Positions 1 to 21,411 of a stretch of 64,000 bases of DNA are shown piece after piece. Made by a program: the position numbers and the translations under genes. The notes beneath the pieces are model-generated. The model saw only the letters and a list, made by a program, of their open reading frames with translations. It was not told where the DNA came from and did no database searches. The DNA lies in the NCBI GenBank assembly GCA_937124965.1, contig CAKZLB010000016.1:24712-88711 (forward strand), given 5' to 3'. The DNA comes from an uncultured Bacteroidota bacterium. Its GTDB lineage: Bacteria; Bacteroidota; Bacteroidia; NS11-12g; UBA9320. Within the stretch, counting starts at the first letter, position 1; each line of letters opens with the position of its first letter.

Positions 1-793
1 GATCAGTAAGGTAAACATGATTGACGCTCAAGAGGAAGTAATTTTGGCACAACGAATCCGGGAAGGCGATCAAGCTGCATTGGAGAAATTAGTTAATGCC
101 AATCTGCGATTTGTGGTATCTGTATCAAAGCAATATCAAAACCAAGGGTTAACCTTGGGTGATTTAATAAACGAAGGAAATCTTGGACTAATCAAAGCGG
201 CAAAACGTTTTGATGAAACTCGTGGTTTCAAGTTTATCTCATACGCTGTTTGGTGGATTCGTCAAAGCATTCTTCAAGCATTAGCTGATCAATCAAGAAT
301 TGTTCGATTACCTCTAAATAAAGTAGGTTCTATCGGTAGAATTTCTGCAACTGCAGCAAAGTTGGAGCAAGAGCATGAGCGCGAGCCAACAGCTGAGGAA
401 ATTGCAAAAGCCCTAGACATTCCGGTAACGGAAGTTGAAAATGCGTTCAAGACTTCAGGAAGACATTTAAGTATTGATGCTCCATTAACAGAAGGGGAGG
501 ACAATACATTACTTGGGGTGTTGGACAACAACGACGAGCCAGATCCAGACAATCCATTGTTAAACGAGTCTCTTCAAAAAGAGATCAACCGTGTAATTTC
601 TACACTTTCTGAAAAAGAAAGAGATGTGTTGAAATACTATTATGGTTTAGATGGTGGACCAGCGCATACGCTGGAAGATATTTCGGAAAAGGTTGGTTTA
701 ACACGAGAGCGTGTTCGTCAGATCAAAGAAAAAGCATTACGAAGATTACGTAAATCTTCAAAAAGCAAAATCCTTAAGTCTTACTTAGGATAA
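1..793 (+). CDS. rpoD: RNA polymerase primary sigma factor (sigma-70/RpoD, short Bacteroidetes type). 5' partial: the reading frame is open from the window edge (codons begin at nt 2).
   Basis: Regions 2.1-2.4 ([48 protein letters not shown]), region 3 and region 4.2 ([27 protein letters not shown]) are read directly from the translation. There is no stop upstream of the ATG at 17 in this frame. Confidence 0.9.
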
Positions 794-810
794 TAAAAAA
801 CTAAATTTTA

Positions 811-846
811 GAAAGGCTCAACTTCGGTTGGGCCTTTCATTTTTTG
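811..846. terminator. Bidirectional intrinsic terminator between the convergent rpoD and dinD genes.
   Basis: Stem aggctcaac (814-822) pairs with gttgggcct (827-835), 9 bp with one G-U, around a UUCG tetraloop. A T-tract (ttcatttttt) follows on the + strand and an A/T-rich tract on the - strand. The dinD stop codon lies inside the T-tract. Confidence 0.6.
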
Positions 847-1679
847 TCCTTTTTTATTTCTTTTAGTATTTTCTTTTCCGTACTTCCAATTCTTCTTTGA
901 ACTTTTTTAACATCTTCCGCAGGTGGCAAACGTTCTGGCTTTACCCCTCTTTTAAGTAAGATGTGTCTTACTTCCTTGTTATTATCAATGTGTTCCTTAG
1001 CTATTGGATTATCTCCTATTAAATCTTTGTCCACCACATTATGACTTGTCAACTCCGTTGCGAAATCTTTAGCTTTTATTAGTAGAGTTGGAAGAAAGTC
1101 CGCCAATGGTCTACCAGTCGGTACACCCAATTTGTTTTTCATAAATTGAGTTGTTTTACCACCAAATAAAGCTTTGTCACCCTCTGAACGAATAGACGCA
1201 AAACTTCTATTGTCTACTCCTCTTTCGTAAATAATACCAGATAATTTCTTTTCTGATTTAGATAGTTTTTCTCGAGCATTAACTCTGTCAATATCCAAGA
1301 ACCGTTTTTCGATTAGTTCTTGCTTTCTTGTTTGAACTGCAAAGTAAGTTTGTGCAAAAGCTATTTCAGGTTTTGTTGAATCCCCATTTTGTGCAATTAA
1401 GTAACAGGCATATCTTGTTAATGCAATATCTTGAATTTCTCTTTGGCCTCCTTTTCCAATTTCTATCATTTTGTTGACTTCAACGAAATGATCCGAAGAA
1501 CTTTCACCTGAATTCTCGCAAGCGCTTACCGCTTTTTGAATAATGTTTGAAAAATTACGCCAATCAGTGTAGCCTAAAATATCTTGTGTTTCTCTTGCAC
1601 TCCAGCATTCAAGTCCGTTAAGGTTGTAACAGGCATCTTGGAATTTTTTAAATAATTCTGCTATTAATTCTTTTTTCAT
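837..1679 (-). CDS. dinD: DNA-damage-inducible protein D (DinD)-like protein.
   Basis: 280 aa. The block WSARETQDILGYTDWRNFSNIIQKAVSACENSGESSSDHF...ALTRYACYLIAQNGDSTKPEIAFAQTYFAVQTRKQE matches what I recall of the enterobacterial DinD family (SARxLGxLLGY..ACENSG..DHF..LSRYACYL..QTYFA). This is from memory and not searched. Confidence 0.6.
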   Translation of the reverse strand: MKKELIAELFKKFQDACYNLNGLECWSARETQDILGYTDWRNFSNIIQKAVSACENSGESSSDHFVEVNKMIEIGKGGQREIQDIALTRYACYLIAQNGDSTKPEIAFAQTYFAVQTRKQELIEKRFLDIDRVNAREKLSKSEKKLSGIIYERGVDNRSFASIRSEGDKALFGGKTTQFMKNKLGVPTGRPLADFLPTLLIKAKDFATELTSHNVVDKDLIGDNPIAKEHIDNNKEVRHILLKRGVKPERLPPAEDVKKVQRRIGSTEKKILKEIKKDKK

Positions 1680-1834
1680 GTGATGAATTTGGTATTTCTT
1701 ATGAGTGTTTAGATTTATTAGACTTCGAAAGGTTTAGAATGACTTACCGAAAGTGCTGGTGTTATGGTTGTCTTATTAATATCATTCACTATTTAATTTC
1801 AGACAGTTCTTGCTGCTATTTGATGAAGGAATCC

Positions 1835-2146
1835 TCAACTCCATTTGTCCATTTTAACTTTTAAGTCACTCGACTCAATCAATAGACCATTTTTGGAATC
1901 TTCTAAAGACTGGTCAATTCGAGTATTAAGCTCTTCAATAGTAAGTGGTTTAGGGGCTTCTCCGTCGGATTTCAATCCTTCTTTTCTTAGAATATTTTCC
2001 AATCGTGTGATTACATCTTCACTTTGAACTTTTAAAAATTCTTTGATAAACTCTAATTTTCTTGTTTGTAAATCCATCGGAGATTTCTTTGTCTCGAAGA
2101 TACAAATAATCCAATTGTGCTCTGTGGACGCTCGGAGGATACTCAC
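1835..2146 (-). CDS. Hypothetical 103-aa protein with no recognisable domain. It lies between dinD and the ectopic rpoD fragment.
   Basis: ORF only. Coding status is uncertain. Confidence 0.3.
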
Positions 2147-2169
2147 TTACATCGTAAAGCATACAAATG

Positions 2170-2281
2170 GTTTTGATGAAACACGTGGTTTCAAGTTTAT
2201 CTCATACGCTGTTTGGTGGATTCGTCAAAGTATTCTTCAAGTATTAGCTGATCAATCAAGAATTGTTCGCTTACCTTTAAA
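2170..2281 (+). repeat. Ectopic copy of a 112-bp internal rpoD segment (sigma regions 2.2-2.4/3.0). It is a direct repeat of 217-328 with 107/112 identical positions.
   Basis: Aligned by eye with a +1953 offset. The mismatches are at 230, 279, 289, 317 and 324. The flanks are unrelated to rpoD. It is embedded in the spurious-looking 95-aa ORF 2043..2330. Confidence 0.85.
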
Positions 2282-2439
2282 CCTGAGTTCGTTTTGGAGT
2301 TATGTGCGATTTCATTACATGCTGTTTTAAGCATTTCATAGTATGTATCCGCTTGATTTTCTGACCAATGTTTTGCAGTGTAATTCCAAATAGTTGTTAA
2401 GTCATTAATGGCTTCTTGCCTCATTATGAGTTTAGCCAT
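2197..2439 (-). CDS. parE: Type II toxin-antitoxin system toxin, ParE/RelE family.
   Basis: 80 aa. The N-terminal pattern is (A)[37 protein letters not shown]. It overlaps the upstream antitoxin ORF by 8 nt. Confidence 0.6.
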
Positions 2440-2683
2440 TTTTTCGTTTTTTTGATTTGAGTTTCACAAGGTGTTCGTCAAAATCAAAATTTTCAACTCT
2501 TGGACTATTTAATCCATCTTGAATAGCATTTTTAAGATTAGTTGCCTTACTTTCTTCATTTTCCAAGAGACGAAGTCCTGCTCTAATTATTTCACTAACA
2601 TTTTTATATCGTCCGGCAGCTATCTGATTTTGCACAAATTAATCAAAATAATCTCCAAGTGATATTGATGTGTTTTTACTCAT
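2432..2683 (-). pseudogene. parD: ParD-family (RHH) antitoxin interrupted by an in-frame TAA (2639-2641) after codon 14. A GTG at 2635 could reinitiate a 67-aa N-terminally truncated product.
   Basis: The minus-strand translation from the ATG at 2683 reads MSKNTSISLGDYFD*FVQNQIAAGRYKNVSEIIRAGLRLLE.... This matches the ParD N-terminus consensus (MxxNTSxSLGxxFDxFIxxQVxxGRYxSASEVxRAGLRLLE) on both sides of the stop. Confidence 0.6.
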
Positions 2684-2783
2684 GATGTAATCTTTTACCA
2701 AATGTGCCAAAAATTGGTAAAATGTTCAAATGAGGTAGTGCGCTTTTACAACTAACCAAGTTATCAAAAGAAGCGAAAAATTA

Positions 2784-4373
2784 TCACTCCTTCTCCCAAT
2801 ACTCACTCATTTGAGCTTCGGCTTGACGTATCCAACTATCGTTTTGGATTAACGAGTCTTGATTTATCCAAGTCACTTTGCTATGTCGGGCGTCGGTCAA
2901 CGTTAGTTCAGGAATACTACCTCCAATATATTCTCCTTTATCGCCGGCTTTGGTTACAATGGTACTCAGCCACATAAACCTAGGTTTGCCATCAACTATG
3001 CGAACGAACGGACGACTTTCAGCTGGATAGTTTTTGCTCCAATCATAGTTCTTTTTGCTTTCAATGATTTTAGCCGTAATTGCACTACTTCCGATATACG
3101 AGTCTTTCGTTTTTCGATGGTCAATGAAGTATACTTTTTCGTCAGTATCGCCTGGAATTAATAAGCTCAAACTCAATCCTTTTTTACTCTCTTCGTACGG
3201 TTCTAATCCAAAAAAGTGGTACAACTTTTCATCATTTTTAACCTTAAAATAGGTCACAAATGGCTGTGGGTTTACATCGTTAGGCAATCTTGGGATCCGA
3301 ATATCGCCTTCGTGATAAAAAGGCATCGGTGCAAAAAAACCATTGGAAAAACGGAAGCTTTCGGCAGTAAAAGCAGCCACTCTTCGTGGAATAATATTTT
3401 GACCCTTTAAAAACGCGAACTCAGAAATTCGAGGAACAGAAACATAATCACCTCTACCTAACAAAACACGTTTCCAATACACGTCTTCGTCCCGTTTTTC
3501 GTGAATTACAAAAACACCATCAAACACAGGTCGAGGAAATAAAATTCCTTTCCAACGTACAATCGGTACTACTTGAACCCAGTGTCCATTATTGTCTTGA
3601 AGATATAATGGCGTTGCTGCTTCGCAATTTAAATATTGACTAATGTTAAATCGCTTCGTCACAGAGGCTTCCGTCTTTTTGCTAAACAACAAAAGCTCTC
3701 CAATATCAAAATTGACATCTTTTCTATATTTTCCGGAAAAGACAGGAGCCGGTAAGTTAGACGGCACATGCAAAATTTCGTACATGTTTTTTTGAAACTG
3801 TTGAAGCTTATAAGACCTCGATGGTCCAACGGCGCAACTAAAATAATACTGTCCGTCGTTGCCTCGAATGAATCTTGGCTCTGTAGCATCTTCGGTTTCA
3901 GAAAGTGCTTCTTGGTTTATTAACGTTCGTACCGAATGGATGGGCTGAATCCGTTCAAAATCTGTTTCGGGAAGCTCAGCCAGCGAAACTTTATTGATGG
4001 TTGAATAGTGAAAATACAAACTCAAATATTTGTAGATTCCTGGACCTGCAAAAAACGAAAACGCCCCAAAGCCTATTAACAAAATGGTAGAGAACACATT
4101 CTTCTTTCCTCCACGTTTCGACCACCCCTTAAAATACCAAACCAGAATTAACAAACATACCACAACAAGAAGGGCATACTTTCGGATGCCTAAAACAGTT
4201 GATTGTAACCCTGCACGATTAATGAATAAAAGTGCAACAATTAACAGAAAAAGTACCGTACTCCAAATGGGTTTGCGTTTGAAATAGGTCTTGAGACTCG
4301 TCCATAACTTGGTTCTGATGTTGTAAACAATCCAGTATAGGCGGTTTGTGATTTCTGGTTTAGGCTCTGTCAT
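2784..4373 (-). CDS. Polytopic membrane protein of unknown family: 3-4 N-terminal TM helices plus a roughly 400-aa C-terminal domain. It is the last gene of the candidate operon.
   Basis: 529 aa. Hydrophobic segments include IWSTVLFLLIVALLFI, YALLVVVCLLILVWYF and VFSTILLIGFGAFSFFAGPGIY. There is a 6-nt gap to the upstream gene. Confidence 0.7.
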   Translation of the reverse strand: MTEPKPEITNRLYWIVYNIRTKLWTSLKTYFKRKPIWSTVLFLLIVALLFINRAGLQSTVLGIRKYALLVVVCLLILVWYFKGWSKRGGKKNVFSTILLIGFGAFSFFAGPGIYKYLSLYFHYSTINKVSLAELPETDFERIQPIHSVRTLINQEALSETEDATEPRFIRGNDGQYYFSCAVGPSRSYKLQQFQKNMYEILHVPSNLPAPVFSGKYRKDVNFDIGELLLFSKKTEASVTKRFNISQYLNCEAATPLYLQDNNGHWVQVVPIVRWKGILFPRPVFDGVFVIHEKRDEDVYWKRVLLGRGDYVSVPRISEFAFLKGQNIIPRRVAAFTAESFRFSNGFFAPMPFYHEGDIRIPRLPNDVNPQPFVTYFKVKNDEKLYHFFGLEPYEESKKGLSLSLLIPGDTDEKVYFIDHRKTKDSYIGSSAITAKIIESKKNYDWSKNYPAESRPFVRIVDGKPRFMWLSTIVTKAGDKGEYIGGSIPELTLTDARHSKVTWINQDSLIQNDSWIRQAEAQMSEYWEKE

Positions 4374-4379
4374 ACTGTA

Positions 4380-4895
4380 TTATTTGTCTAAAAAGTCCTT
4401 AATACCTTTTCTCCAATCTTCGTCTTTATCGTCTTTTTTAGGAGGAGACTTTATCTCATCACGCTCAGGTTTGGGTGTTTCGACGTTTATAGGTTTAACT
4501 TCTTTTATATCCGCTTCAATTGCATCAATTTTTCTGAGCGTTTCATTGGCTTTTTTTAAACCTTTAGGTAGTTTATTGGCTATAAATGGGCCTACATAAA
4601 ACCCTATGATTACAGCAACTAAGGCTATCCCACCTTGAAGAAAAGTTATGAGTGGGTTTAGGTTACCCAACCACCAAGTAATGTACATGAAGACGCCTGT
4701 TATTATAATAGCTGGTACAACACGTTTTGAAAAAGGTTGATTGCGAATAAAGGTGTCATCAATGGATGGATGCAACGGATCCTTGTGACTTAAGTCGTAC
4801 CATCGTTTGTACCAAGCTTGTCCTTTTTTATGATCCCATAAAACGAAAAGGATGCCTAAAACTAAACCGATAATGAGCGAAAGTATTGAGTCCAT
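4380..4895 (-). CDS. Small 2-TM membrane protein with a lysine/aspartate/glutamate-rich C-terminal tail. Unknown family.
   Basis: 171 aa. TM segments are VVPAIIITGVFMYITWWLG and GGIALVAVIIGFYVGPFI. The tail is KPINVETPKPERDEIKSPPKKDDKDEDWRK. There is a 2-nt gap to the upstream gene. Confidence 0.65.
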   Translation of the reverse strand: MDSILSLIIGLVLGILFVLWDHKKGQAWYKRWYDLSHKDPLHPSIDDTFIRNQPFSKRVVPAIIITGVFMYITWWLGNLNPLITFLQGGIALVAVIIGFYVGPFIANKLPKGLKKANETLRKIDAIEADIKEVKPINVETPKPERDEIKSPPKKDDKDEDWRKGIKDFLDK

Positions 4896-4897
4896 AA

Positions 4898-6172
4898 TTA
4901 TTGGATTAAGTGATTGTAAATGTCTTTATGTTTCAAAATTTTATCGATAATCCATTGTTGGGTCTGGTCGTCCCACGATTGGTAATCGGTGTAGAATTTT
5001 GATTTATCAAAAAGGTACGTAATAACAGGGTTTGAATCATTGATATTAGACAACATCTTCCAAAGCACTTTTTTGTCACGTTGATTCAGATGACTCTTTG
5101 GATTGAGCAAGTAAGGAAAAAGGGATTGTGGCAAATCATCCGCGTTAATATTCTTTCCATCTCTTACGTCTCCAATTAATCGTTCAAATTCAAAATAAAC
5201 ATCTGGCAGATGCCCGTCTTGGAGTAATTTGTTTATCAGTCCTTTTTTCTGATTTTTATTTAATGAGATGTAATCATACTTTTTTCCTGAAGCGCTTATT
5301 GCACTCAACAGTACCTGCTCTTGCATCAAGTCAAGCATTGCTGGAAACTGGGCGTAAATGCTCAAATCGTTTGATATTAATCCAGCATTGTACAAGTAAC
5401 TCACCAGACTTGGGTCTTTGATATTATACTCTATATGGCCGTGTTTTGTTTCGCCAGAAACACTGGTTTTATTCCCACCATAAACGAGCAAGGGTTTGTT
5501 ATTTTTAAGTTTTTTAAAGACATATAATCCGTCAAAAGCCACCGTATGAAACGTGTCAATTTCATTAAATGGATGCGTCGGAATGTCGAGTTTCATGTAG
5601 CGTAAGTCACCATGTTTTTTGCATGATTCAATAATCTCTTTTCGCAAATCGTCATTCGACCAGGCATTTGGTTTATCGTAAAATTCGCTGATAAGCTCTC
5701 GTTGTTTTTGCGCTGCAAGCATTATTCGATCAACACTGTAGAAATTTACCTTGATGTAATCAATCATTAATAAATCTTGTGGTGATCTATACGCCGTAAT
5801 TTCTTGGTCCAATTCAAACCACAAACCAGATCGCGTAGTAATATCGGTGATTTGGTCTTTATAATGTTTGAATATTTTCTGATGTATTTGTCGATCGAAA
5901 CTATGATACGGCATGTATATAGCGCTATCTTCTTGTTTCGGAGTGATGATAATTCCGTATGGATTGGCAAGTCCATGCGATAAGTAAAAACGGTCATCTT
6001 GTTCTTCTGCAATCTGCGGGCTCCATCCCCAACCATCAATGTGAAACTGTTTTAATTTGGTAGGAGCGAGGCCAATATCTTCCAAGCACTCGTTGTACCG
6101 CTTTACTAACGATGGCGAGTAAATATCCACCAAATTGTGACCAAAAAGTTCGCTTTCGATAAGTTTAATCAT
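4898..6172 (-). CDS. Hypothetical 424-aa soluble protein with no recognised motif. Operon member.
   Basis: Long uninterrupted ORF. It overlaps the upstream AAA gene by 8 nt, suggesting translational coupling. Confidence 0.65.
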   Translation of the reverse strand: MIKLIESELFGHNLVDIYSPSLVKRYNECLEDIGLAPTKLKQFHIDGWGWSPQIAEEQDDRFYLSHGLANPYGIIITPKQEDSAIYMPYHSFDRQIHQKIFKHYKDQITDITTRSGLWFELDQEITAYRSPQDLLMIDYIKVNFYSVDRIMLAAQKQRELISEFYDKPNAWSNDDLRKEIIESCKKHGDLRYMKLDIPTHPFNEIDTFHTVAFDGLYVFKKLKNNKPLLVYGGNKTSVSGETKHGHIEYNIKDPSLVSYLYNAGLISNDLSIYAQFPAMLDLMQEQVLLSAISASGKKYDYISLNKNQKKGLINKLLQDGHLPDVYFEFERLIGDVRDGKNINADDLPQSLFPYLLNPKSHLNQRDKKVLWKMLSNINDSNPVITYLFDKSKFYTDYQSWDDQTQQWIIDKILKHKDIYNHLIQ

Positions 6173-8126
6173 GAATGTTTCCGTTCATTAATTCTTTATT
6201 CGCTTGTTGTTGAATGTACAAACGTTTTGCCTGTTCCTTAATTTCTCTATTTACACCAGTTTGGTTAATTCGAATACTATTTTCTATATAGTTCAAAGCT
6301 TCATACAGTCGGATATCTCCAAATGAAACCCCTTTCATATTCTGCTTCATTAGGTCTTTCAATATGATGATTTTTTTGTCATACGGTTGCGTGAAAAAAT
6401 CATCTTTGTTGCTCCACCAAACCTCTGGTAGGTCAAAATCTATCAATCGAGCGTCAACTGCTTTTTGAATATTTCGAAGATCTCTCGAAGAAAAGAACGG
6501 ATATTTCTGTAACACCGATTCATAAAACTTACCAAAAAATTGATGCGCATCGACATCTACTTGTTTGGATGTGTTATAAAACATTTCTTCAAGTTCTGGG
6601 ATTTGAAACGAGTATTTTGTTTCAACCAACTCGTTGATGGATGCCGCAGCTTGTTGCGCGTCCATGTATTTGTAGTTTTTAGGATCCTGATTGTCAATGA
6701 ATTTTTTATCTAGTTCCGTATATTTCTTCCACCACAAATAATCTTGATCCATGAAATCAAACTCACTAGAAGCACCTTCCATTGATATCCGCATCTGAAT
6801 TCTAGACAGCACCGCCTTATCAATTTGATCCGGAATATTTGTGAATAGACTGATCAAACGATTACCAAGATTTACTGCGTACGCACCTTCAGTATTCCGA
6901 AGGAAAACGCCTATGAATTCTCTTACACCCGCCGAAACACCTTGTCTGGTTCGTTCTTCTAAATTGTTTTCTGCATCATCAATAGGAGCAAAAACAATTT
7001 TATTAGGATCTTGCATTGGTTTAAACCATTCCATTGCTCGTTCTGCAGTTCCACCTTGAAACGTAGAAACGATGGTTTCTGGCAATGGCCAAAAAAGAAA
7101 TGGATATCCTAAATCGTCGCATCGTTCTTGAATTAACGTCGCAGTTGCAGCAATAAGCATACTTTTTCCAGTACCAGGTTTTCCATCGGCCATGGTTATG
7201 GAAGGTAATCCACCAAGCTCATTGATAGGGTTCATTTTTGCATCAAAATCGTAACACAATAACCTCTCTGCATAACGTTTAAAAAGATGTTTCGCCTGTT
7301 TATTAGCTACAATCGCCTCCATTCGAGTTGGATTGAATTGTGTACCCTTCACGGACACAGAAGAGGGCGATTCAAACCCTTGAATAACATATTGCGTTTT
7401 TTCAAGTTTGTAATGGTTTTGGGTAAAAGCTTCCGAATACTTTAATGCATTTTTTCGGAGAATTACTTCTTCCATTATTCGTTCAAAGTATAATAAGGTC
7501 AGCTTTACAAAGTGCAAGTCTGATACAACAACTCCTGAACGCTCTAAGTACGCCGCATAGTAATACATGCTACATTGAATCGCTTTCGAAGGTCGTGTTA
7601 AACTGACCTCAGGAATTCCTGCGAAGTCAATTTGAATAGACGAAACTTCATCCGAGCGATAATCGGCTAGTGCGTATTGAATAAATGTGGAAGCAGCAAA
7701 AAGTAAGATTGCACTTTGTGTTTGACTTTTATCATGAAACTCTGGGAGTTCAGATTGATGCAAACTGCCATTTTTGTTTTTTTGATGAAGCAATTCTAAA
7801 CCACTTGCGTCGCCATATAGCTTGGCAATGTGTTTTCCGATGCTGTAACCTTTGCGTATTGCATTCATTACTTGATTGCTCGCATTCGATAATATCACAC
7901 GATCGTTGCTAATTCGGACCGCCTCTTTTAATACACTCGATTGATCTTCCTGTTGCAAATCCATTGCTTTTGACACATTGGACAAGAAGTTTAAATTGAT
8001 AGCATTTGCACCCGATTTATTGTCAGGCTTCCAACTAACTTGTTTTAAGTACGTGGTAATTTCTTCTTTATACTGATCTAAGTCGTCTTCTTTTATTTTT
8101 AATAAGGATGATTCTTGTTTTTCCAT
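6165..8126 (-). CDS. Classical-clade AAA ATPase with Vps4/katanin/spastin-like sensor region, carrying a roughly 300-aa N-terminal domain of unknown type.
   Basis: 653 aa. Walker A is GKPGTGKS. A Walker B-like motif is KIVFAPIDDAE. The sensor-1/SRH stretch VNLGNRLISLFTNIPDQIDKAVLSRIQMRISM resembles Vps4 (ATNIPWxLDxAIRRRFEKRIYIPLP). Confidence 0.75.
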   Translation of the reverse strand: MEKQESSLLKIKEDDLDQYKEEITTYLKQVSWKPDNKSGANAINLNFLSNVSKAMDLQQEDQSSVLKEAVRISNDRVILSNASNQVMNAIRKGYSIGKHIAKLYGDASGLELLHQKNKNGSLHQSELPEFHDKSQTQSAILLFAASTFIQYALADYRSDEVSSIQIDFAGIPEVSLTRPSKAIQCSMYYYAAYLERSGVVVSDLHFVKLTLLYFERIMEEVILRKNALKYSEAFTQNHYKLEKTQYVIQGFESPSSVSVKGTQFNPTRMEAIVANKQAKHLFKRYAERLLCYDFDAKMNPINELGGLPSITMADGKPGTGKSMLIAATATLIQERCDDLGYPFLFWPLPETIVSTFQGGTAERAMEWFKPMQDPNKIVFAPIDDAENNLEERTRQGVSAGVREFIGVFLRNTEGAYAVNLGNRLISLFTNIPDQIDKAVLSRIQMRISMEGASSEFDFMDQDYLWWKKYTELDKKFIDNQDPKNYKYMDAQQAAASINELVETKYSFQIPELEEMFYNTSKQVDVDAHQFFGKFYESVLQKYPFFSSRDLRNIQKAVDARLIDFDLPEVWWSNKDDFFTQPYDKKIIILKDLMKQNMKGVSFGDIRLYEALNYIENSIRINQTGVNREIKEQAKRLYIQQQANKELMNGNIHD

Positions 8127-8179
8127 GTTTTACCAATATTGACAACTAAATCGTTTGATTTAATTGTCTTTTTTTCATG

Positions 8180-9280
8180 TTATTTATTGTAAACGTAAAC
8201 AGGTGCAGCAAGTCCCTTTAACGTTTCAGGTTCTGTATCGTTCAGGTATTGTAATACATCATGTGACGTAATCATATACGAATGCATATCCGACACCATT
8301 CGATCCATGCATTCTTTATTCGACTCGTCTACATGAAAGATTTGGCGAAGTTCTCCCTTAGACAAAAACGACTTGCTTCGCTTTTCACCTTTAGAAAAAA
8401 CTACCTCTGTTTTGTACGTGATGATGAAGTCATCGTCCGTAAAATGTTTCCTTAGAAGTAGGGAATATTTATGCTTGTCACGTGAATACTTTCCATATAT
8501 AGGCCCAATCTCTATGCGTTTTAACACCTTGGGCATAATGTTTTCGTATGCATTATCAATATCCGATGCCATCACTTTAAGTGGCGCGGAATTATGCGTA
8601 ATTTTCTTCAACGTTTCAACAAAAGCTGGGTCGTTGTCTACACCAGACAAAGGGTCTTTTGAAACCAGTGGGTTGTCAAAAATCATTATGTAGATATATG
8701 GTTTGTTCGTTACACTGTCGTAAGACGCCCATGAATAAAAGAAAGTTCGTGTTTTATGTTCGTCTGTATGTTGATTAAGCAACTCAATGCTACCCGGGGT
8801 AAATTCAGTAAATAAATTACTCCATTGTAATCGTATGTAGTAGCTCGATTTACTTAATTTATTCAGTAACGAAATCGGGTCAGACTTCTTTCGAACCATA
8901 TGGTCTAAGATGCTTTGTTTTAAAGAATCTTTCGATGGCAATTTCGCTAACTCCGCATCTTTTTTGTCAATATCCGCATCCAGCTTCTTAAATTCCATAA
9001 AGTTTGGGAAGCCACTTTCCGTGACGTCCACAAGCATAGAATTTGTCTCGTCGTATGCATACTTTAATCGTAAAGCTTCTATGGAATTAAGATACTTTTG
9101 AGAAAAGCTCTTCAGTGCTTTTATTTCTTTCGAATCTTCCGATGTGAGACTGTCGAACGAATTCAACAAAATCTCCAGACAGTTTTTTACGTAGTTGAAG
9201 TAATCGGAGTATGCGTTCTCGCCAGCTAGAATACTCCGATCTAACTCTGTAAAATGATTGTTTATATCAATGGTCTTCAC
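8180..9280 (-). CDS. Hypothetical 366-aa protein. Operon member, no recognised domain.
   Basis: Long ORF in the same orientation. There is a 9-nt gap to the upstream gene. Confidence 0.6.
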   Translation of the reverse strand: MKTIDINNHFTELDRSILAGENAYSDYFNYVKNCLEILLNSFDSLTSEDSKEIKALKSFSQKYLNSIEALRLKYAYDETNSMLVDVTESGFPNFMEFKKLDADIDKKDAELAKLPSKDSLKQSILDHMVRKKSDPISLLNKLSKSSYYIRLQWSNLFTEFTPGSIELLNQHTDEHKTRTFFYSWASYDSVTNKPYIYIMIFDNPLVSKDPLSGVDNDPAFVETLKKITHNSAPLKVMASDIDNAYENIMPKVLKRIEIGPIYGKYSRDKHKYSLLLRKHFTDDDFIITYKTEVVFSKGEKRSKSFLSKGELRQIFHVDESNKECMDRMVSDMHSYMITSHDVLQYLNDTEPETLKGLAAPVYVYNK

Positions 9281-9289
9281 GTCGTACGA

Positions 9290-10669
9290 TTAGTCCATCA
9301 AGTTATTGACTGAATCATTGGAAGGTTTGTTTGGTGTGCCATTGTCTTTAGGCGCGTCATCGTTGCCTGTCTTTTCGTGCTTAAACGAGAATGTTTCGCT
9401 TACATCAATTCCAAACTTTTTACCATGCTGTTCCATGATTTTAGCATCTTCTTCCTTGTATTTTGCCGTTGCTTCAGCCATTGCTACCAATACTTGATGC
9501 AATTCGGTCATACGTTTAGGATGTTTTTTAACACGTTCAATTCTATCTTTTTCAGAACCGACGAGCACTTTAGCAGCAATCTCAGTTATTTTTTGATCGG
9601 TTTTAACACCAGCTTCTTCATACATCGAAGCAGCTTCTTGCGCTGTTGCCGACTGAATTAATTGCAATCCAGATTCGTATGTTGCAACTCTTTCTTCTGT
9701 ATCACTCTTCAGCTGACCAATAAGCTGTTTAAGGTTGTTCTTAGTTGTGGTTTGAGCCTCAAGGTGGATAACAATTTGATCAACAAATCGCTCTTTTGAC
9801 TGAAAGATTCCCAATGCAATATTGAACTTACCTTTCAGGTCAGACCTACGTTCTTTTAAGTCGGCAACTTTCTTTTCTTGGGCAGTATACTCAGGGCTAT
9901 TGTTTGGCAACTCGGTAAGTTCGGTTTCGGCTTGCTTAAGTTCGTTTTCCGTTTGTTCAAGATCTGCCTTGCGATCTTCCATAATTGTCGCAGCCTTTTC
10001 TTTCGTTTCGAACGCAAGTTCTTTTCTATTTTTAAGTGAAACTATTTGTGCGTCAACATCGATAATCATGTTTTCTACAATACCCACCATGCCTTGTACC
10101 TGGCTGATGATTCGGTTTAGACTTTCTCCGATATCTGCGTTTTTAAGACGATCTCTATAACGTTTTTGAGCTTCTTCCTCTGCAGCTTTTAATGCAGAAA
10201 TCATTTGCTCAAGTTCTTCTTTACTCTTTTTTACTTTGCTGTTTTTGTAACCAAATAAAATATTCCAAGCATTCGACATACCCTCAGCGTCCATCACTTC
10301 AACTTCTGCTTTTTTACGAGCATTGCTGGCGTTTTCTACCAGTTTTTGTTCGGATGCATTAAGTTCTTGAAGCTTCGAAAACTCTCCTCCACAACTATCA
10401 AGCATTGATCGTAAGTGAAGCATTAGTTCTTGTAAATCCTGTTCCGTGGCTTCGACATCGCCATTTAAGGAGTCGAAATTTGCATTGATGATACCATCAA
10501 CAATTTCTTCTGAAGATCTATTTTCTTCAACCGCTTTTTCAATATCGGCTTCTATTTGGTCAAGTTTGGAGGTGATGTCCTCACCTGTTTTTTTTTCAAG
10601 TTTTGCTTTTAGGGTTTCTACTTTTTTTTGATCACCCAATTGGTCTAGCAAATCAAAGGAGTCTGACAT
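9290..10669 (-). CDS. Acidic coiled-coil protein, 459 aa and almost entirely helical with glutamate/lysine-rich heptads. It may be TelA-like or PspA/ESCRT-III-like. First gene of the operon.
   Basis: Composition and heptad-like runs such as KADLEQTENELKQAETELTEL and LKERRSDLKGKF. There are no TM segments. A divergent promoter region lies upstream. Confidence 0.65.
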   Translation of the reverse strand: MSDSFDLLDQLGDQKKVETLKAKLEKKTGEDITSKLDQIEADIEKAVEENRSSEEIVDGIINANFDSLNGDVEATEQDLQELMLHLRSMLDSCGGEFSKLQELNASEQKLVENASNARKKAEVEVMDAEGMSNAWNILFGYKNSKVKKSKEELEQMISALKAAEEEAQKRYRDRLKNADIGESLNRIISQVQGMVGIVENMIIDVDAQIVSLKNRKELAFETKEKAATIMEDRKADLEQTENELKQAETELTELPNNSPEYTAQEKKVADLKERRSDLKGKFNIALGIFQSKERFVDQIVIHLEAQTTTKNNLKQLIGQLKSDTEERVATYESGLQLIQSATAQEAASMYEEAGVKTDQKITEIAAKVLVGSEKDRIERVKKHPKRMTELHQVLVAMAEATAKYKEEDAKIMEQHGKKFGIDVSETFSFKHEKTGNDDAPKDNGTPNKPSNDSVNNLMD

Positions 10670-10695
10670 ATAATTCGTTTTAAGGTTAAGATGCC

Positions 10696-10703
10696 CAAAT
10701 TTA
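10696..10703 (-). promoter_or_regulatory. Candidate Bacteroidetes -7 promoter element TAAATTTG for the six-gene operon.
   Basis: The minus-strand sequence ...ttattaaaTTTGggcatc... lies about 30 nt upstream of the ATG at 10669 and matches the TAnnTTTG consensus. No clear -33 TTG was found. Confidence 0.3.
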
Positions 10704-10924
10704 ATAATTTAAACCTGACATCGATTATTATTTAAAGTTTAAGCCGACAGGAAAAAGGGATTATCGACTAAAAAATAGGGTAAGATTTGATGGTTGTTCA
10801 GTTTTTGTTGATAGATGATAAACGATTACATGATTGACACAGATATAGTTGACGATATTATTAGTTGTACGCGGTCATGCCGGAAAAGTTACATCGTATT
10901 TCGGGTTAAATATTGTTTCTTTGA

Positions 10925-11860
10925 ATGATGATTTCCGTCGTAATACCAATTTACAATGAAGAAGCCAACATCCTGCCCATGTATAAGCGGATGACTGCGG
11001 TTTTTGATAAGCTCAATTTGGATCGAGAATATGTTTATGTAAACGACGGAAGTGCGGATAAAAGCCAAGAAATTCTTATTGAATTAGCCAACGAGCATCA
11101 AGACGTAAAGTATATCAATTTTAGCAGAAATTTTGGGCATCAAATAGCGGTAAGTGCGGGGTTGGAGTTCTCGTCAGGCGATAAAATAGTAATCATCGAT
11201 GCTGATGGGCAAGATCCGCCAGAAGTAATTGAAGATTTATACCTCAAGAGCATCGAAGGATTTGAGGTGGTCTATGCAAAGCGAGCAGAGCGAAAAGGTG
11301 AGTCTGCCATGAAAAAAGCAACTGCGAAGTGGTTCTACCGAATATTAAACAAAATTATTCACTTCGACATCCCGCTAGATACTGGAGATTTTAGAATCAT
11401 GGATCGTAAGATTGTCAACCAATTGTTGATGATGCCAGAGCGACACAAGTTTCTTCGAGGACAAATATCTTGGATAGGTTTCAACCAAACGTATGTAACG
11501 TACAATCGGGAAGAACGCATGAGTGGTCAGACTGGATACAGTTATTCCAAAATGATTCGCTTTGCATTGGATGGAATTACATCGTTTAGTAATTGGCCGT
11601 TAAAAATTGCAACAATCAGTGGGTTTCTATTTTCGTTTATTGGTTTCTTGTTGATTTTATACACCCTGTATTCTCGGTATGTCATCAAAGATTATCAACC
11701 AGGGTGGGCGTCACAAATGGTAACAATGATTTTTATTGGAGGAATACAATTAATAGGAATTGGTATCATAGGAGAATATATAAGTCGGATGAATGAAAAC
11801 ATTAAGAACCGTCCGTTGTATATAGTTAAAGATTCGAATATTCCTCATGCATCAGATTGA
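10925..11860 (+). CDS. Family-2 glycosyltransferase, polyprenyl-phosphate sugar transferase type (GtrB/ArnC/DPM1-like), with two C-terminal TM helices.
   Basis: VVIPIYNEEANI...YVNDGSADKS...IIDADGQDPP are the DXD and GT-A motifs. The C-terminal TMs are ATISGFLFSFIGFLLILY and VTMIFIGGIQLIGIGIIGEY. Confidence 0.85.
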   Translation: MMISVVIPIYNEEANILPMYKRMTAVFDKLNLDREYVYVNDGSADKSQEILIELANEHQDVKYINFSRNFGHQIAVSAGLEFSSGDKIVIIDADGQDPPEVIEDLYLKSIEGFEVVYAKRAERKGESAMKKATAKWFYRILNKIIHFDIPLDTGDFRIMDRKIVNQLLMMPERHKFLRGQISWIGFNQTYVTYNREERMSGQTGYSYSKMIRFALDGITSFSNWPLKIATISGFLFSFIGFLLILYTLYSRYVIKDYQPGWASQMVTMIFIGGIQLIGIGIIGEYISRMNENIKNRPLYIVKDSNIPHASD

Positions 11861-12422
11861 GCCACATTTTCTTTGGCGACATGTTTATAAAGCGAGTAGC
11901 GACCCAAACAGTCCGTTTTATCGAACGCAGTATAGTCAGTTTGAATACACCAACAAAATCTATAACTACTTGGTCCACCCTCAATGGGATTATTTTGGCA
12001 GTGAAACGTTATTGCTAAAAGTTCTTTTTGTAGACTATGATGAGAAGTATGCAATTATTGAAATGATTGGAGAGTGGAACGACGCAATTCACAATGATAT
12101 TGCAGTCTTGAAACGAGAGGTAATTGACGAAATGCTTGATTTGGGTATTGAAAAGTTCATACTCCTTGGGGAAAATGTCTTGAATTTTCATTCTGGAGAT
12201 GATGCTTATTACCAGGAATGGTGGGAAGATACGCCAGGTGGGTGGATTGCCTTTTTACATTTTCGAGATCACATTATGGATGAAATGGAGGCTGCAGGCA
12301 TTGACTCTTATATCAAGTTGGAGGAAGAAGATGAAACCACTTGGTCTTGGAAAACTAAAAAACCCGAGCAGCTATTCGAAGCAGTCGACCAATTGATGAT
12401 GAAGGAGTTGGGAGGGCAATAG
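11847..12422 (+). CDS. Hypothetical 191-aa acidic protein.
   Basis: ORF overlapping the glycosyltransferase gene end by 14 nt. No motif recognised. Confidence 0.5.
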   Translation: MHQIEPHFLWRHVYKASSDPNSPFYRTQYSQFEYTNKIYNYLVHPQWDYFGSETLLLKVLFVDYDEKYAIIEMIGEWNDAIHNDIAVLKREVIDEMLDLGIEKFILLGENVLNFHSGDDAYYQEWWEDTPGGWIAFLHFRDHIMDEMEAAGIDSYIKLEEEDETTWSWKTKKPEQLFEAVDQLMMKELGGQ

Positions 12423-12574: not shown

Positions 12575-13000
12575 TTAAAAAGATTTCCAATGGCTCCAAT
12601 CACTGACCCAAGACCAAATCCAAAAAAAAGCCCCAAAACCTGCTGTTGTACCTCTATCGAAACATACTAAAGCGCCAGAATTAGAGCAATCTTCCGGCCC
12701 AAAAAAACCTATAACAGCCCCTGTGGATACTCCTATTAATGCGCCTCTACCGACATTTTGGTTAAAAGAACGTTTCGTTTTGATTCTACCAATAGTGCTT
12801 GCTTGAATATTTATAGTGTCAAACCTATGTAGTAATTGAATGGACGAGTCGGAAATAGAAAGAATTATTCCACTAGCAATCTTATCACCCGAATAATTCA
12901 AATCGTACATGCGTACAAAGAGATTCGTGTCTTTGAGTTTGGTTTGAGCAAATGCATTGGTTATCAACAACAATGCGGTAATAAAAAACAGATTTTTCAT
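12575..13000 (-). CDS. Secreted or lipoprotein with a C-terminal glycine-zipper (2TM-type) domain.
   Basis: The signal peptide MKNLFFITALLLITNAFAQ gives a likely start at 13000 rather than 13054. The C-terminus is GALIGVSTGAVIGFFGP...TTAGFGAFFWIW. Confidence 0.7.
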   Translation of the reverse strand: MKNLFFITALLLITNAFAQTKLKDTNLFVRMYDLNYSGDKIASGIILSISDSSIQLLHRFDTINIQASTIGRIKTKRSFNQNVGRGALIGVSTGAVIGFFGPEDCSNSGALVCFDRGTTAGFGAFFWIWSWVSDWSHWKSF

Positions 13001-13072
13001 AATATTATAGATTAGGACGTGAATTGAGATGTGCGAAATAAAGAGACTAAACAACTAAGCATAATGCAACCC

Positions 13073-13846
13073 TCATTGTTCAATATGGTACTTTATCAGG
13101 TTCCATATTTGCTTCTTTTCTAGAAACTCTTTTCGAACATTGTTACTATCCTTTTCAAGAATTTCTTTACGAATCACACCAATATTTTTTGCACTGTAGA
13201 TTACGGTGCTCTTGTTGTTGAATACCATGTTGTTTTTATCGTGTTTTATAACAACATTTTCAAAAACTAACTGTCCAATCGATAGAGTAGGGTAAACGGT
13301 ATCATTTGCTGTATTAAAAATCGGTGTGCCGCCCTTATATACGTATCCAGTATTCCATGTAGTATCTAGAGTTAGTTCACGCTCTTTATTAAAATACGTA
13401 CTAGGCATTATCATAAAAATGGTAGGTTCAAGAACATAGTATGGTAAGTGGCTAGGTCTTAGATACACAGTATTTTTATGATATGTTTCAGAAAGACGGT
13501 AACAAAACGAGTCAGACATTGTCGAAGCGCAATAAGATGCTAAATAGGGCAAATAAGGGTGGTTTATTGGAGACCACCTGAAACTAAGATTTGGTTTCTG
13601 CTCAGTGCTAGCAACATTTTTAATAACCCAAACACTATCCCTTAAACCAGAAAGCTGTTCCTCATATACCCACCAAGTTCCAGTTTTAAAAGACCCCCAG
13701 TCTTTTAATTCTTGCGAAAACGATTCTTGCCAAGACGAATCTGAAGCCTTCTTAAGGTTCTCGATTTCTTCTCTTTCGCAACCCTCAAATATCAAAAAGA
13801 ATAGAATGATATAAATATACCGACTAATAATAGATGTGACTTTCAT
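13073..13846 (-). CDS. Putative lipoprotein. Unknown function.
   Basis: N-terminal hydrophobic signal followed by a Cys (ILFFLIFEGC). Confidence 0.6.
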   Translation of the reverse strand: MKVTSIISRYIYIILFFLIFEGCEREEIENLKKASDSSWQESFSQELKDWGSFKTGTWWVYEEQLSGLRDSVWVIKNVASTEQKPNLSFRWSPINHPYLPYLASYCASTMSDSFCYRLSETYHKNTVYLRPSHLPYYVLEPTIFMIMPSTYFNKERELTLDTTWNTGYVYKGGTPIFNTANDTVYPTLSIGQLVFENVVIKHDKNNMVFNNKSTVIYSAKNIGVIRKEILEKDSNNVRKEFLEKKQIWNLIKYHIEQ

Positions 13847-14528: not shown

Positions 14529-15797
14529 TCACTCCGTCGTGTCAATTTTTAACCGAACCGTTTCAATCCGATGATCTTCAGAATGTAAAATGGTGAAAAT
14601 AAATCGACCTAAATCAATAGTTTCTCCTTCGTTTGGAATGCTTTGATGTTCTGAAATAATAAATCCTCCCAACGTCTCATAATCACCATCTGGGATTTGT
14701 AAATTGTACTTTTCGTTTAGAAAATCCACTTCCAATTTTGAGGATAATTCATATTCTAAATCAGAAATCTTTTTATCAATGATGTCTGTCTGATCGTCGT
14801 GCTCGTCTTCGATTTCTCCAAATATTTCTTCAATAATATCTTCCGTAGTTACGATTCCGGATGTGCCTCCAAACTCATCCACAACAACAGCTATACTTTT
14901 TCTATTAACGGTAAAATCATTCAACATTTCATTCGCCAACTTTGATTCATTTGTAATCAATATTGGAATCAAAATGGAACTAATGTTTTTTGGTTCTTTG
15001 AACAAATCAATATGGTGCACGTAACCGATAATATTGTCAATCGTTTCTTTATATACCAGAACCTTGCTATGACCACTTTCCATAAAAAGGGCCAGTAATT
15101 CATCCACAGAACTGTTTAAATCAATAGCAACTAATGCCGTTCGGGGAATCATGCATTCGCGTATTTGAACCGAACCAAAATCTAGAGCATTTTTAAGAAT
15201 ATCGGTATCAACATCACGGTCGTCTTCGTTTTTATGTTTTTGACTTTCAGTGATATAATGGTCTAAATCTAGTCGACTAAAGGTTGGACTTTCCTCCGTA
15301 AACTCTTTCTTCAACACCAAACGTAAGATGCTTTTCGCCAACCAAAGTGTAAATCGAACGATAGGAGAAAGGACTTTTGCGAAGAATTGAAACGGATAAA
15401 TAAGCACGCTCAAGATACCTGTAGGGTTTATCCGAAACATTGCTTTTGGTAAAAACTCAGCAAGAACTAAAACAACTAGCGTTGAGATAAACGTAATCAG
15501 TAACATCTGACTAAAGCCTTCCAAGTGTAAGCCAAAAATGTCGGAGAGGCTCTTGTCGAGCAAAGTCTCCATCGCAATACCATAAATGACGATGGCAATG
15601 TTATTCCCAACGAGAATTGTACTGATAAACTTCGAGGGAGTCTTGATATACTTTGCGCAGATAACAGCCCATTTCACACCTTGAACACTCTTCAATTCAA
15701 TGCGAAGTTTGTTTGCAGATAAAAAGGCAATTTCCAAACCAGAGAAAAATGCCGAAAGTAGGAGGGTCAGAAATATAACCAGTAAGGAAGATTCCAT
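14529..15797 (-). CDS. CNNM/HlyC-CorC family transporter-associated protein (DUF21 TM domain plus CBS pair plus CorC_HlyC).
   Basis: The likely start is MESSLLVIFLTLLLSAFFSGLEIAF (15797), which is a DUF21 N-terminus. CBS-type and C-terminal transporter-associated regions follow. Confidence 0.8.
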   Translation of the reverse strand: MESSLLVIFLTLLLSAFFSGLEIAFLSANKLRIELKSVQGVKWAVICAKYIKTPSKFISTILVGNNIAIVIYGIAMETLLDKSLSDIFGLHLEGFSQMLLITFISTLVVLVLAEFLPKAMFRINPTGILSVLIYPFQFFAKVLSPIVRFTLWLAKSILRLVLKKEFTEESPTFSRLDLDHYITESQKHKNEDDRDVDTDILKNALDFGSVQIRECMIPRTALVAIDLNSSVDELLALFMESGHSKVLVYKETIDNIIGYVHHIDLFKEPKNISSILIPILITNESKLANEMLNDFTVNRKSIAVVVDEFGGTSGIVTTEDIIEEIFGEIEDEHDDQTDIIDKKISDLEYELSSKLEVDFLNEKYNLQIPDGDYETLGGFIISEHQSIPNEGETIDLGRFIFTILHSEDHRIETVRLKIDTTE

Positions 15798-15899
15798 AGT
15801 GCTTAAGCGCACTACAAAAGTATATAAATAATCGGATTGTATGTCTACACTTCTCTTTCGCAGGCAGTTGCAAAGCATTATTTTTGCCCTGTTTTACTC

Positions 15900-17432: not shown

Positions 17433-17499
17433 GACATAATCTAAGTCGTGTGAATTTTGAAGGTAACATCAATTGTTAAAGTTGTCGTAGTTTCGTTCT

Positions 17500-17784
17500 A
17501 TGTCTAAGACGTGGTATAAAAATCGTTATTTTATTGTGTTTGCTGTGTTGGCAACATGGTTGGCGTTTTTTGACCAAAATAATTTTGTTTACCAATATCG
17601 ATTGGGAAAGCAAATAAAAGTACTACAAGACGAAAAAGAGTTTTATGAAAAGGAGATTGTTAAACTCAAAGAACAAAAGGAGTTGCTAAGTACTGATGAA
17701 GCCATGCTTGAGCGATTTGCTCGTGAGACCTATCGCATGAAAAAAGAGGATGAGGTTTTGTTTCTGCTGAAGGAAAAACCGTAA
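17500..17784 (+). CDS. Septum formation initiator family protein (FtsB/DivIC-like).
   Basis: 94 aa: an N-terminal TM, then a coiled coil, then the LERFARETYRMKKEDEVLF motif. Confidence 0.6.
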   Translation: MSKTWYKNRYFIVFAVLATWLAFFDQNNFVYQYRLGKQIKVLQDEKEFYEKEIVKLKEQKELLSTDEAMLERFARETYRMKKEDEVLFLLKEKP

Positions 17785-17820
17785 ACGCTAAGCCAGTACG
17801 CCTCGTAAGAATCTTTCTGA

Positions 17821-20097
<2,277 letters not shown>

Positions 20098-20116
20098 TCT
20101 GACATTTTGATAAAAC

Positions 20117-20152
20117 AAAAACGCCGAAGATTATTCTTCGGCGTTTTTGTTT
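20117..20152. terminator. Bidirectional intrinsic terminator.
   Basis: acgccgaag-attatt-cttcggcgt is a perfect 9 bp stem followed by a T-tract. It lies between the convergent icd gene and the 20157..20510 gene. Confidence 0.65.
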
Positions 20153-20156
20153 CTTT

Positions 20157-21404: not shown

Positions 21405-21411
21405 TATTATA

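Follow-up and report, generated by a model that had tools for sequence, protein, structure and literature searches.

Among the described systems that resemble the locus analyzed here, SPDIR replaces resident DNA with a short ectopic segment, intragenomic or extragenomic in origin, and leaves an insertion-deletion patch with microhomology junctions, without a recombinase. It was reported in Acinetobacter baylyi under selection, with ectopic patches of 3 to ~100 bp and accompanying deletions, and extragenomic donors have been documented (bioRxiv 10.1101/2023.11.22.568220). Replicative template switching of the FoSTeS/MMBIR type, documented mainly in eukaryotes, gives deletion junctions that contain templated insertions (e.g., PMC5120786 and PMC7954356). 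Islands bounded by attL and attR have direct repeats flanking accessory genes beside a conserved housekeeping gene, and decaying type II toxin-antitoxin (TA) loci contain truncated toxin genes and antitoxins that have lost their toxin. In bacteria, evidence for template switching comes from stress-induced lac amplification in E. coli, and tandem duplications with subsequent remodelling by deletion are common.

We analyzed a 64-kb stretch of DNA (the window), in which a piece of the primary sigma factor gene rpoD recurs downstream of the gene itself. We consider this second copy to be an inert scar of illegitimate recombination, whatever the route that produced it (probability of about 0.85 to 0.9). 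The features of the region are the following.

1..793 (listed ORF 17-793), plus strand: rpoD, primary sigma-70 gene (Pfam Sigma70 r1_2, r2, r3, and r4; NCBIfam RpoD models)
207..318, plus strand: repeat copy 1 (R1), inside rpoD, reaching from the end of region 2.2 through 2.3-2.4 into the start of 3.0
811..838, plus strand: rpoD intrinsic terminator hairpin, adjoining the dinD stop codon
837..1679, minus strand: dinD, DNA-damage-inducible protein D with a Bro-N domain (NCBIfam NF008573, 2.6e-104; PADLOC PDC-S13, 1.4e-114)
1680..1834, minus strand: residual 155 nt in place of a 105-aa toxin gene, with at most the first codons (MELRI...) recognizable
1835..2077, minus strand: orphan 80-aa antitoxin, start ATG at 2077, with a weak NCBIfam RelB/ParD match
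2170..2281, plus strand: repeat copy 2 (R2), an orphan rpoD fragment oriented like rpoD, with a maximal extent of 2164-2282
2282..2295, no strand: gap of ~14 nt from the end of rpoD homology to the end of recognizable parE, which could be filler from the junction or a parE loop that has diverged (by comparison with L011, whose parE is intact)
2296..2439, minus strand: parE', the 5' half of a ParE toxin gene, with ~48 of 99 codons (Pfam ParE_toxin profile positions 2-44 of 89)
2432..2683, minus strand: parD pseudogene, full length with 83 codons, of which codon 15 (2639-2641) carries the nonsense change CAA>TAA
2784..10669, minus strand: six-gene operon (529 aa, 171 aa, DUF6638, AAA ATPase, 366 aa, 459 aa), context only

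The direct repeat is genuine. Copy 1 (207-318) and copy 2 (2170-2281) have the same orientation and an offset of 1963, and they are identical at 107 of 112 positions; a repeat search returned a longer version (201-318 versus 2164-2281, 111/118 identical), and self-BLAST of the pair excluded chance (E = 9e-46). Only two long direct repeats were found in the window, the rpoD pair being one of them. The original prediction had described a 112-bp repeat with 107/112 identity, and the repeat, its orientation, and its identity all hold, but copy 1 had been placed at 217-328, which is 10 nt too high: pairing these coordinates literally with 2170-2281 gives 24/112 identity. The 37-residue peptide quoted at the time is the correct translation of 209-319, and copy 2 encodes the same peptide except for one A>V change. 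Copy 1 covers codons ~93 to 130 of a gene that has 287 codons in relatives, or codons 64 to 101 of the window ORF 17-793, as the window begins ~29 codons inside rpoD. The window RpoD is 100% identical at the amino acid level to one of the relatives' 287-aa RpoD proteins over the aligned part (P0062) and 94% identical to another (P0001). As had been claimed, rpoD is intact through copy 1, with sigma-70 regions 1.2, 2, 3, and 4 all held in ORF 17-793, and the rpoD terminator, dinD, and a small ORF lie between the copies; the interval also includes the last 475 nt of rpoD, which had not been weighed earlier. The terminator is probably bidirectional, since its hairpin abuts the dinD stop codon.

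Copy 2 is antisense to the minus-strand genes around it. Both of its edges are sharp, with microhomology of at most 4 nt (CAAA) at the left and none at the right. The flanks of the two copies are indeed unrelated, as 30-nt anchored alignments were no better than random on either side (P = 0.14 at the left and 0.59 at the right); blastn and tblastx hinted at homology past the repeat edges, to 2151/2155, but this extension was not significant. We then looked for further sigma sequence near copy 2. A tblastn search of positions 801-6000 with a 287-aa RpoD (E ≤ 100) returned only 2151-2282, with E > 1 for the rest, and thus no decayed second sigma gene was found in the flanks. Paralogue decay, the earlier idea of a second rpoD-like copy, also fails on divergence: copy 2 and the resident rpoD share 95% identity, versus ~86% for the closest other species, and its 6 differences over 111 positions from the resident gene are too few for a decayed sigma paralogue, compared with 13 to 26 for the orthologues of other species.

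The right edge of the repeat coincides with the truncation of parE at ~codon 48 of 99. Alignment to the intact L011 cassette showed 86% DNA identity for the window parDE, ending near 2296-2302, and measured against this complete parE, resident sequence has been lost. The neighboring genes had been named simply as parDE; in fact, only the 5' half of parE remains and parD has an in-frame stop, so that the pair is dead. On the other side of copy 2, the 103-aa ORF listed up to 2146 corresponds to an upstream extension of the 80-aa antitoxin, for which 30 metagenomic homologues align to residues 1-80 (up to 71% amino acid and ~76% DNA identity). Homologous antitoxin loci carry an overlapping 105-aa toxin gene, of which nothing significant was detected between the antitoxin and dinD in the window. 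Because this neighboring antitoxin has also lost its 105-aa toxin, we view the locus as a zone of repeated deletions. Homologues of dinD with 88 to 89% amino acid identity occur in unrelated contexts, with DNA homology limited to the ORF, and dinD is, judging from these comparisons, a single-gene accessory cassette. A truncated parE, a parD that was kept and then hit by a nonsense mutation, and a second antitoxin without its toxin are all reminiscent of decaying type II TA loci, and the parE truncation is comparable to that in a separate genome (L013), where parD followed by a truncated parE constitutes an independent case. The difference is that here part of an essential gene with no relation to the TA locus sits at the truncation junction, a feature unusual for TA decay.

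With parE truncated at the right junction, sharp edges, and no recombinase, a scar of illegitimate recombination, which had been among the initial suggestions, is the best reading of copy 2. We propose that a 112-118-bp piece of an rpoD allele was joined non-homologously into the gap between two TA cassettes, in a single event that would also have deleted the 3' half of parE plus whatever lay past parE. A nascent or displaced single strand may have copied or annealed to a short stretch of rpoD and then been rejoined downstream. Loss of the toxin would have rendered the event tolerable, and the leftover antitoxin gene parD could afterwards have decayed, acquiring its nonsense codon. A local, replicative route is the most likely, since the donor rpoD is only 1.96 kb away and in the same orientation. 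The single-step formation of patch and deletion, the local source of the copy, and its lack of function are our inferences; for the one-step local route specifically, we put the odds at about even.

The locus shares with SPDIR an ectopic donor, copy 2 matching rpoD 207-318 located 1963 nt upstream, and the loss of resident DNA. It differs in that the patch, at 112-118 bp, is at or just over the upper end of the SPDIR range, that the deletion amounts to at least ~150 bp, and that microhomology is at best 4 nt, on one side; moreover, SPDIR was observed, whereas the event proposed here is deduced from its product. FoSTeS/MMBIR-type template switching resembles the locus in the short copy taken from a site ~2 kb away, the direct orientation, and the sharp-edged break point, but the 5% divergence between donor and copy would require an extra assumption.

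In a two-step history, the 1963-bp unit 207..2169 would first have been duplicated in tandem; it comprises the 3' part of rpoD, the terminator, dinD, the toxin remnant, and the antitoxin, and its duplication would have created the left junction at 2169/2170. A later illegitimate deletion would then have trimmed the second unit, taking away everything in it from rpoD position 319 on and the downstream DNA as far as the middle of parE. The spacing of exactly one unit, the direct orientation, and a novel left junction in which the end of the unit meets its start are all as in remodelled tandem-duplication junctions, and since both routes predict the same final sequence, nothing in the window contradicts this one. 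We nevertheless regard it as unlikely, if quite conceivable: two independent illegitimate events are needed where one is enough, neither dinD nor the antitoxin has left a trace of a second copy in the window, and only 112 bp of the presumed 1963-bp second unit would remain, with the intermediate not seen. The synonymous bias described below is equally difficult to explain by this route.

Over 209-319, the two copies differ at 6 positions, 5 of them synonymous and 1 non-synonymous (pS of 0.20 and pN of 0.012). These differences comprise one T/A, three C/T, one A/C, and one T/C mismatch, and the states found in copy 2 at rpoD positions include 220A, 268T, 307C, 314T, and 319C. A copy of the present rpoD left to drift is expected to accumulate mostly changes of the non-synonymous type and to show a longer branch. 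We found that the distances to outgroup rpoD genes are practically the same for copy 2 and copy 1 (13 versus 14 for L001 and 17 versus 18 for L002), and the observed pattern has a P of ~0.03 to 0.06, in a hand calculation from site counts, under a model with R1 constrained and R2 neutral. Copy 2 has C>T at three of the differing positions, a type of change shared with the parD nonsense mutation and fitting AT-biased decay. Polarization of the six differences with the outgroups was attempted, and the synonymous sites are too homoplastic for confident assignment. Equal outgroup distances together with the synonymous bias therefore point to a later replacement of the resident rpoD allele, to a donor from a close relative, or to chance with small numbers, and they hint that copy 2 may preserve a different rpoD allele.

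These same data (5 synonymous changes versus 1 non-synonymous, pS ~0.20, R1 and R2 equidistant from the outgroups) would suit a foreign donor, i.e., an rpoD fragment of a closely related strain or species patched in ectopically, and SPDIR accepts extragenomic donors (bioRxiv 10.1101/2023.11.22.568220). We judge such an origin improbable. Landing less than 2 kb from its own homologue and in the matching orientation would be a striking coincidence, and replacement of the resident rpoD allele by homologous recombination after a local event yields an equal pattern. Furthermore, no allele with the copy-2 variants was found among GTDB species representatives (53-mer), viral contigs, or JGI metagenomes (30-mer). 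The GTDB scan with a conserved 53-mer retrieved only OX044357.1, from a species whose rpoD is identical in protein and 81% identical in DNA, and the scans of JGI metagenomes with a lineage-specific 30-mer and of viral contigs each gave 0 matches.

Since the window comes from a metagenome-assembled contig of an uncultured Bacteroidia bacterium, we considered a chimeric join or a misplaced cluster of rpoD reads from a strain variant. An artefact of this kind is very improbable. A mis-join in the assembly graph requires shared junction k-mers, and the flanks share at most ~4 nt with rpoD; non-rpoD sequence is present on either side of the fragment; and the truncated parE and nonsense-mutated parD are coherent with a real deletion. 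With 5-6 differences from the resident rpoD, the fragment is not a duplicated read of that locus.

Direct repeats around dinD and the antitoxin superficially look like attL and attR, as if the 112 bp were the att core of an island integrated in or next to rpoD. The original prediction had rejected both a Campbell-type split and an att duplication at the 3' end because rpoD is continuous through its own copy, and we concur. Site-specific integration has next to no chance of being correct: no integrase or recombinase was found in or near the interval (Pfam, ORFs up to 22 kb), no rpoD 3' end follows copy 2, and what the repeats bracket is the 3' 475 nt of rpoD with its terminator, essential host DNA and not element DNA. 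Unlike attL/attR pairs, the repeats are internal to the gene and not 3'-terminal, and they are 95% and not 100% identical. The sequence was absent from the viral and mobile contigs searched, a plasmid search with 1680-2760 matched the fragment to ordinary rpoD genes only, and no integrase-bearing element of another genome was found with the 112-bp core at its ends. Other mobile elements were considered as well. Searches of the ORFs up to 22 kb turned up neither an integrase nor a transposase nor a reverse transcriptase. A diversity-generating retroelement with TR/VR repeats was rejected, as the mismatches are not confined to adenines and the neighboring ORFs contain no RT domain, and so was an IS or MITE, as copy 2 has no recombinase and is not flanked by terminal inverted repeats.

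The proposal that the repeats could mediate homologous excision of the 1.95-kb interval did not survive inspection of the product. Recombination between the copies would delete the rpoD codons after ...RLPLN (regions 3-4) and leave a truncated sigma factor. Because regions 3-4 would be removed, the copies are not a harmless excision device, and a deletion between them would presumably be lethal.

We also evaluated whether copy 2 might be functional, either as a putative antisense RNA to rpoD or as a predicted mimic of sigma region 2.2-2.4 that would bind RNA polymerase. In the first variant, read-through from the degenerate parDE promoter through parE' would give ~112 nt with 95% complementarity to the rpoD mRNA; in the second, a 95-aa plus-strand ORF (2043-2330) would compete for the beta-prime clamp of RNA polymerase. 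If true, the host would thereby have gained, through a recombination accident, its own modulator of the primary sigma factor. The rpoD frame is kept in copy 2, with one conservative A>V and a pN/pS of ~0.06, ORF 2043-2330 spans the fragment in frame, and the fragment lies antisense within a string of minus-strand genes; the sole positive hint, however, is the strongly synonymous-biased divergence (5:1), and the kept frame is accounted for just as well if copy 2 arose recently from a functional allele. No relative was found to carry the fragment. On the minus strand of positions 1-3000 there was no -7 promoter motif of the Bacteroidota type, sigma-70-type promoter matches occurred only at chance level, an Rfam search of the whole window gave no match, and ORF 2043-2330 has a TTG start and no ATG. 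We hold a function of either kind to be extremely improbable.

Annotation of the fragment as a sigma pseudogene, att site, or island border should be avoided. The locus raises no new biological question; it would provide a clean natural case of a deletion junction patched with part of an essential gene that lies 2 kb away, of some use in catalogues of template-switch or SPDIR-type events from wild genomes, and its synonymous-biased divergence could date or source the event given population data.

Finally, we examined the surroundings, as copy 2 had been taken to mark the boundary of an acquired segment, with a novel operon named just beyond it. The rpoD neighborhoods of eight relatives are all unlike the window and unlike one another. 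In the CorC-anchored relatives (L049-L058), which are syntenic, the sequence compared ends inside the DUF6638 gene, 3 kb short of the copy 2 region. At least the part of the operon from 5651 to 10669 has a syntenic counterpart in a distant relative, with 74% DNA identity, and the operon is therefore conserved backbone and not a fresh island or newly acquired cargo. Copy 2 does not delimit it but lies inside an accessory islet of ~2 kb, between two TA remnants.

Only two long direct repeats emerged from comparison of the 64-kb window with itself. One of them pairs a segment inside rpoD (positions 207 to 318, termed R1) with an orphan copy downstream (2170 to 2281, termed R2), at an offset of 1963 nt and with 107/112 identity; the repeat finder stretches the pair to 201-318 and 2164-2281 (111/118). 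Similarity by chance is excluded by the E value of 9e-46 in the 64-kb self-comparison. We thus confirmed the duplicated rpoD segment of the original prediction with a 10-nt correction: its downstream copy was correctly placed, but the upstream copy, given as 217-328, was ten bases too high (literal pairing yields 24/112). The flanks are indeed unrelated between the copies, as homology ends at the edges of R2, where anchored alignments of the 30-nt flanks did not outscore random ones (P = 0.14 and 0.59). Graph mis-assembly is an unlikely source of R2, with at most ~4 nt common to rpoD at either junction, non-rpoD sequence on both sides, and differences between R2 and the resident copy. The genes from the rpoD terminator to 10.7 kb are all on the minus strand, and the features of the region are as follows.

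17-793, rpoD ORF with sigma-70 regions 1.2, 2, 3, and 4; R1 lies inside and the gene is uninterrupted
811-838, rpoD terminator
837-1679, minus strand, dinD (NCBIfam DinD, 2.6e-104; PADLOC candidate PDC-S13, 1.4e-114)
1835-2077, minus strand, antitoxin of 80 aa, with 30 metagenomic homologues matching residues 1-80
2170-2281, R2, between the antitoxin and parE'
directly right of R2, minus strand, parE' (5' half), covering positions 2-44 of 89 of the Pfam ParE profile
2432-2683, minus strand, parD, full length, with CAA>TAA at codon 15
2784-10669, minus strand, six-gene operon: 529-aa and 171-aa membrane-like proteins, DUF6638 (424 aa), AAA ATPase (653 aa), 366 aa, and 459 aa

We then asked what R2 could be. 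A remnant of a second sigma gene, also raised by the original prediction, was rejected: within 801-6000, the full RpoD query matched only 2151-2282, and R2 differs from the resident rpoD at 6/111 positions, versus 13 to 26 for orthologues of other species. An attachment-site duplication had already been discounted, and we agree, since the repeat is internal to rpoD, the bracketed interval takes in the rpoD terminator and the final 475 nt of the gene, and no recombinase gene (nor any transposase or reverse transcriptase) was found among ORFs up to 22 kb. The R1/R2 mismatches are not adenine-specific, which disqualifies a template/variable pair of a diversity-generating retroelement. No viral contig contained the R2 sequence, and its plasmid matches were ordinary rpoD genes.

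The surroundings of R2 are more informative. Homologues of dinD with 88 to 89% protein identity occur in unrelated places, beside HigBA or IS110, and because DNA similarity to them is limited to the ORF, dinD appears to be a single-gene accessory cassette. More broadly, DinD (PDC-S13 being a PADLOC phage-defence candidate) is very widespread across Bacteroidota at 75 to 89% identity in unrelated contexts, often neighboring toxin-antitoxin (TA) modules or IS elements. A 103-aa ORF had been proposed between the copies; a small ORF does exist there, but the real gene is the 80-aa antitoxin. In 10 of 11 loci inspected, a 105-aa toxin comes after this antitoxin and overlaps it, the toxin itself being degraded in the eleventh; in the window, no significant toxin remnant was found in the residual 155 nt. 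On the other side of R2, parD-parE' has 86% DNA identity to an intact cassette in another genome, whose ParE has 99 residues. Homology to that parE ends at ~2296-2302, around codon 48, leaving ~14 nt (2282-2295) assignable to neither rpoD nor parE. Because a cut parE, a nonsense parD, and a toxin-less antitoxin flank it, R2 occupies the precise junction of a deletion between two degraded TA cassettes. Toxin truncation with retention of the antitoxin recurs, as shown by a locus in GCA_054016075.1 (L013, 430-520), where parD is followed by a parE cut independently after ~22 codons and adjoining a different TA pair.

The proposal that R2 is a scar of illegitimate recombination therefore stands, R2 lying at a deletion junction with random flanks and with neither a recombinase nor further sigma sequence. 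The simplest account would be one illegitimate event, in which a deletion took parE's 3' half along with all that separated it from the upstream region of the antitoxin, and a short piece of rpoD, lying 1.96 kb away in the same orientation, was copied or annealed into the junction. Such an event matches descriptions of short-patch double illegitimate recombination, reported to leave ectopic patches of 3 to about 100 bp accompanied by deletions (bioRxiv 10.1101/2023.11.22.568220), although R2, at 112-118 bp, is at or slightly beyond the upper end of that range; it also matches the description of template-switch junctions. The proximity and shared orientation of the donor rpoD argue for a local origin. 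Two steps are equally consistent: the unit 207..2169 would have been duplicated in tandem, and a deletion would then have trimmed the second unit to its first 112 bp and run on into parE; the final sequence is the same, so that sequence cannot separate the routes. By either route, toxin loss would make the outcome tolerable, and the parD nonsense codon would be the expected aftermath. R2 is an ordinary, if tidy, instance of an already known type of genomic scar.

Read in frame with rpoD (codons 209-319), R1 and R2 differ at six positions, by five synonymous changes and one A>V (pS 0.20, pN 0.012). This synonymous bias has P of ~0.002-0.007 if all changes are neutral and ~0.03-0.06 when, more fairly, R1 is taken as constrained and R2 as drifting (hand calculation from site counts). 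Given this bias and since R2 is no farther than R1 from outgroup rpoD genes, it looks as if most of the divergence arose between two functional rpoD alleles. We rank first a later replacement of the resident rpoD by a slightly divergent allele through homologous recombination, and second a patch derived from DNA of a close relative. Selection on R2 comes third: beyond the synonymous-biased divergence, a functional reading has no support, as R2 has no Bacteroidota-type promoter motif, sigma-70-type matches at chance level, no Rfam family, and a spanning ORF with a TTG start only. Chance, with six sites, ranks fourth.

The repeat had also been seen as a device for excising the 1.95-kb interval. 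An R1 x R2 exchange would not remove dinD neatly; its predicted product is an rpoD deleted after ...RLPLN, encoding a sigma factor without regions 3 and 4. Such a primary sigma factor should be lethal, presuming no second group-1 sigma elsewhere in the genome. Selection therefore protects the repeat from collapse, and R2 can persist as an inert scar.

Nor does R2 delimit an acquired segment. Through a CorC-like gene we found a relative (22 contigs, L049-L058) that is collinear with window positions 14531-25418 and 5651-12416 at ~74% DNA identity. The shared order takes in a glycosyltransferase, the genes for the 457-aa and 366-aa proteins, the AAA ATPase, and the first part of DUF6638; these loci reach to 3 kb short of the islet at 837-2783. 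The six-gene operon, described as novel, has almost no family matches and no PADLOC match, and because it is syntenic in this relative from 5651 onward, it is conserved backbone in the lineage and did not arrive recently. At most, the ~2-kb islet is variable, and R2 falls in its interior rather than on its edge. Pattern scans of GTDB, JGI metagenomes, and viral contigs revealed no closer relative. A second variable spot lies within the otherwise collinear region: window 12575-13846 has two small ORFs (159 and 257 aa) without family match, where L049 (11377-14304) has, between CorC and the glycosyltransferase, a Por_Secre_tail protein of 975 aa.

The window starts ~29 codons into rpoD; its RpoD matches that of the closest relative found without any difference and has the same C terminus as the relatives' 287-aa RpoD. 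An identical protein is encoded by L001 (ENA ERZ10646634 contig_15799, 10001-10864) despite 19% DNA divergence. That rpoD is called as 259 aa owing to a 1-nt insertion near its 3' end, probably a sequencing or assembly error, because the same species in OX044357.1 (99.8% identical) has an intact 287-aa gene. A 52-nt stretch (window 255-306, GGTGGATTCGTCAAAGCATTCTTCAAGCATTAGCTGATCAATCAAGAATTGT) is 100% conserved with this species, versus 81% for the whole gene, its synonymous sites being unusually still. In an ENA contig from another organism, a 375-aa RpoD (P0005) has an in-frame internal tandem duplication of ~88 residues in regions 2-3, the segment YQNQGLSLPDLINEG...RRPSPEE being present twice; this duplication is either genuine or a product of assembly. 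The other long direct repeat of the window falls within a stretch (57.8-60.7 kb) with no ORF of at least 120 aa and no Rfam match; its copies, at 58139-58599 and 59199-59708, are ~460-510 nt long, 84% identical, and ~1.06 kb apart.
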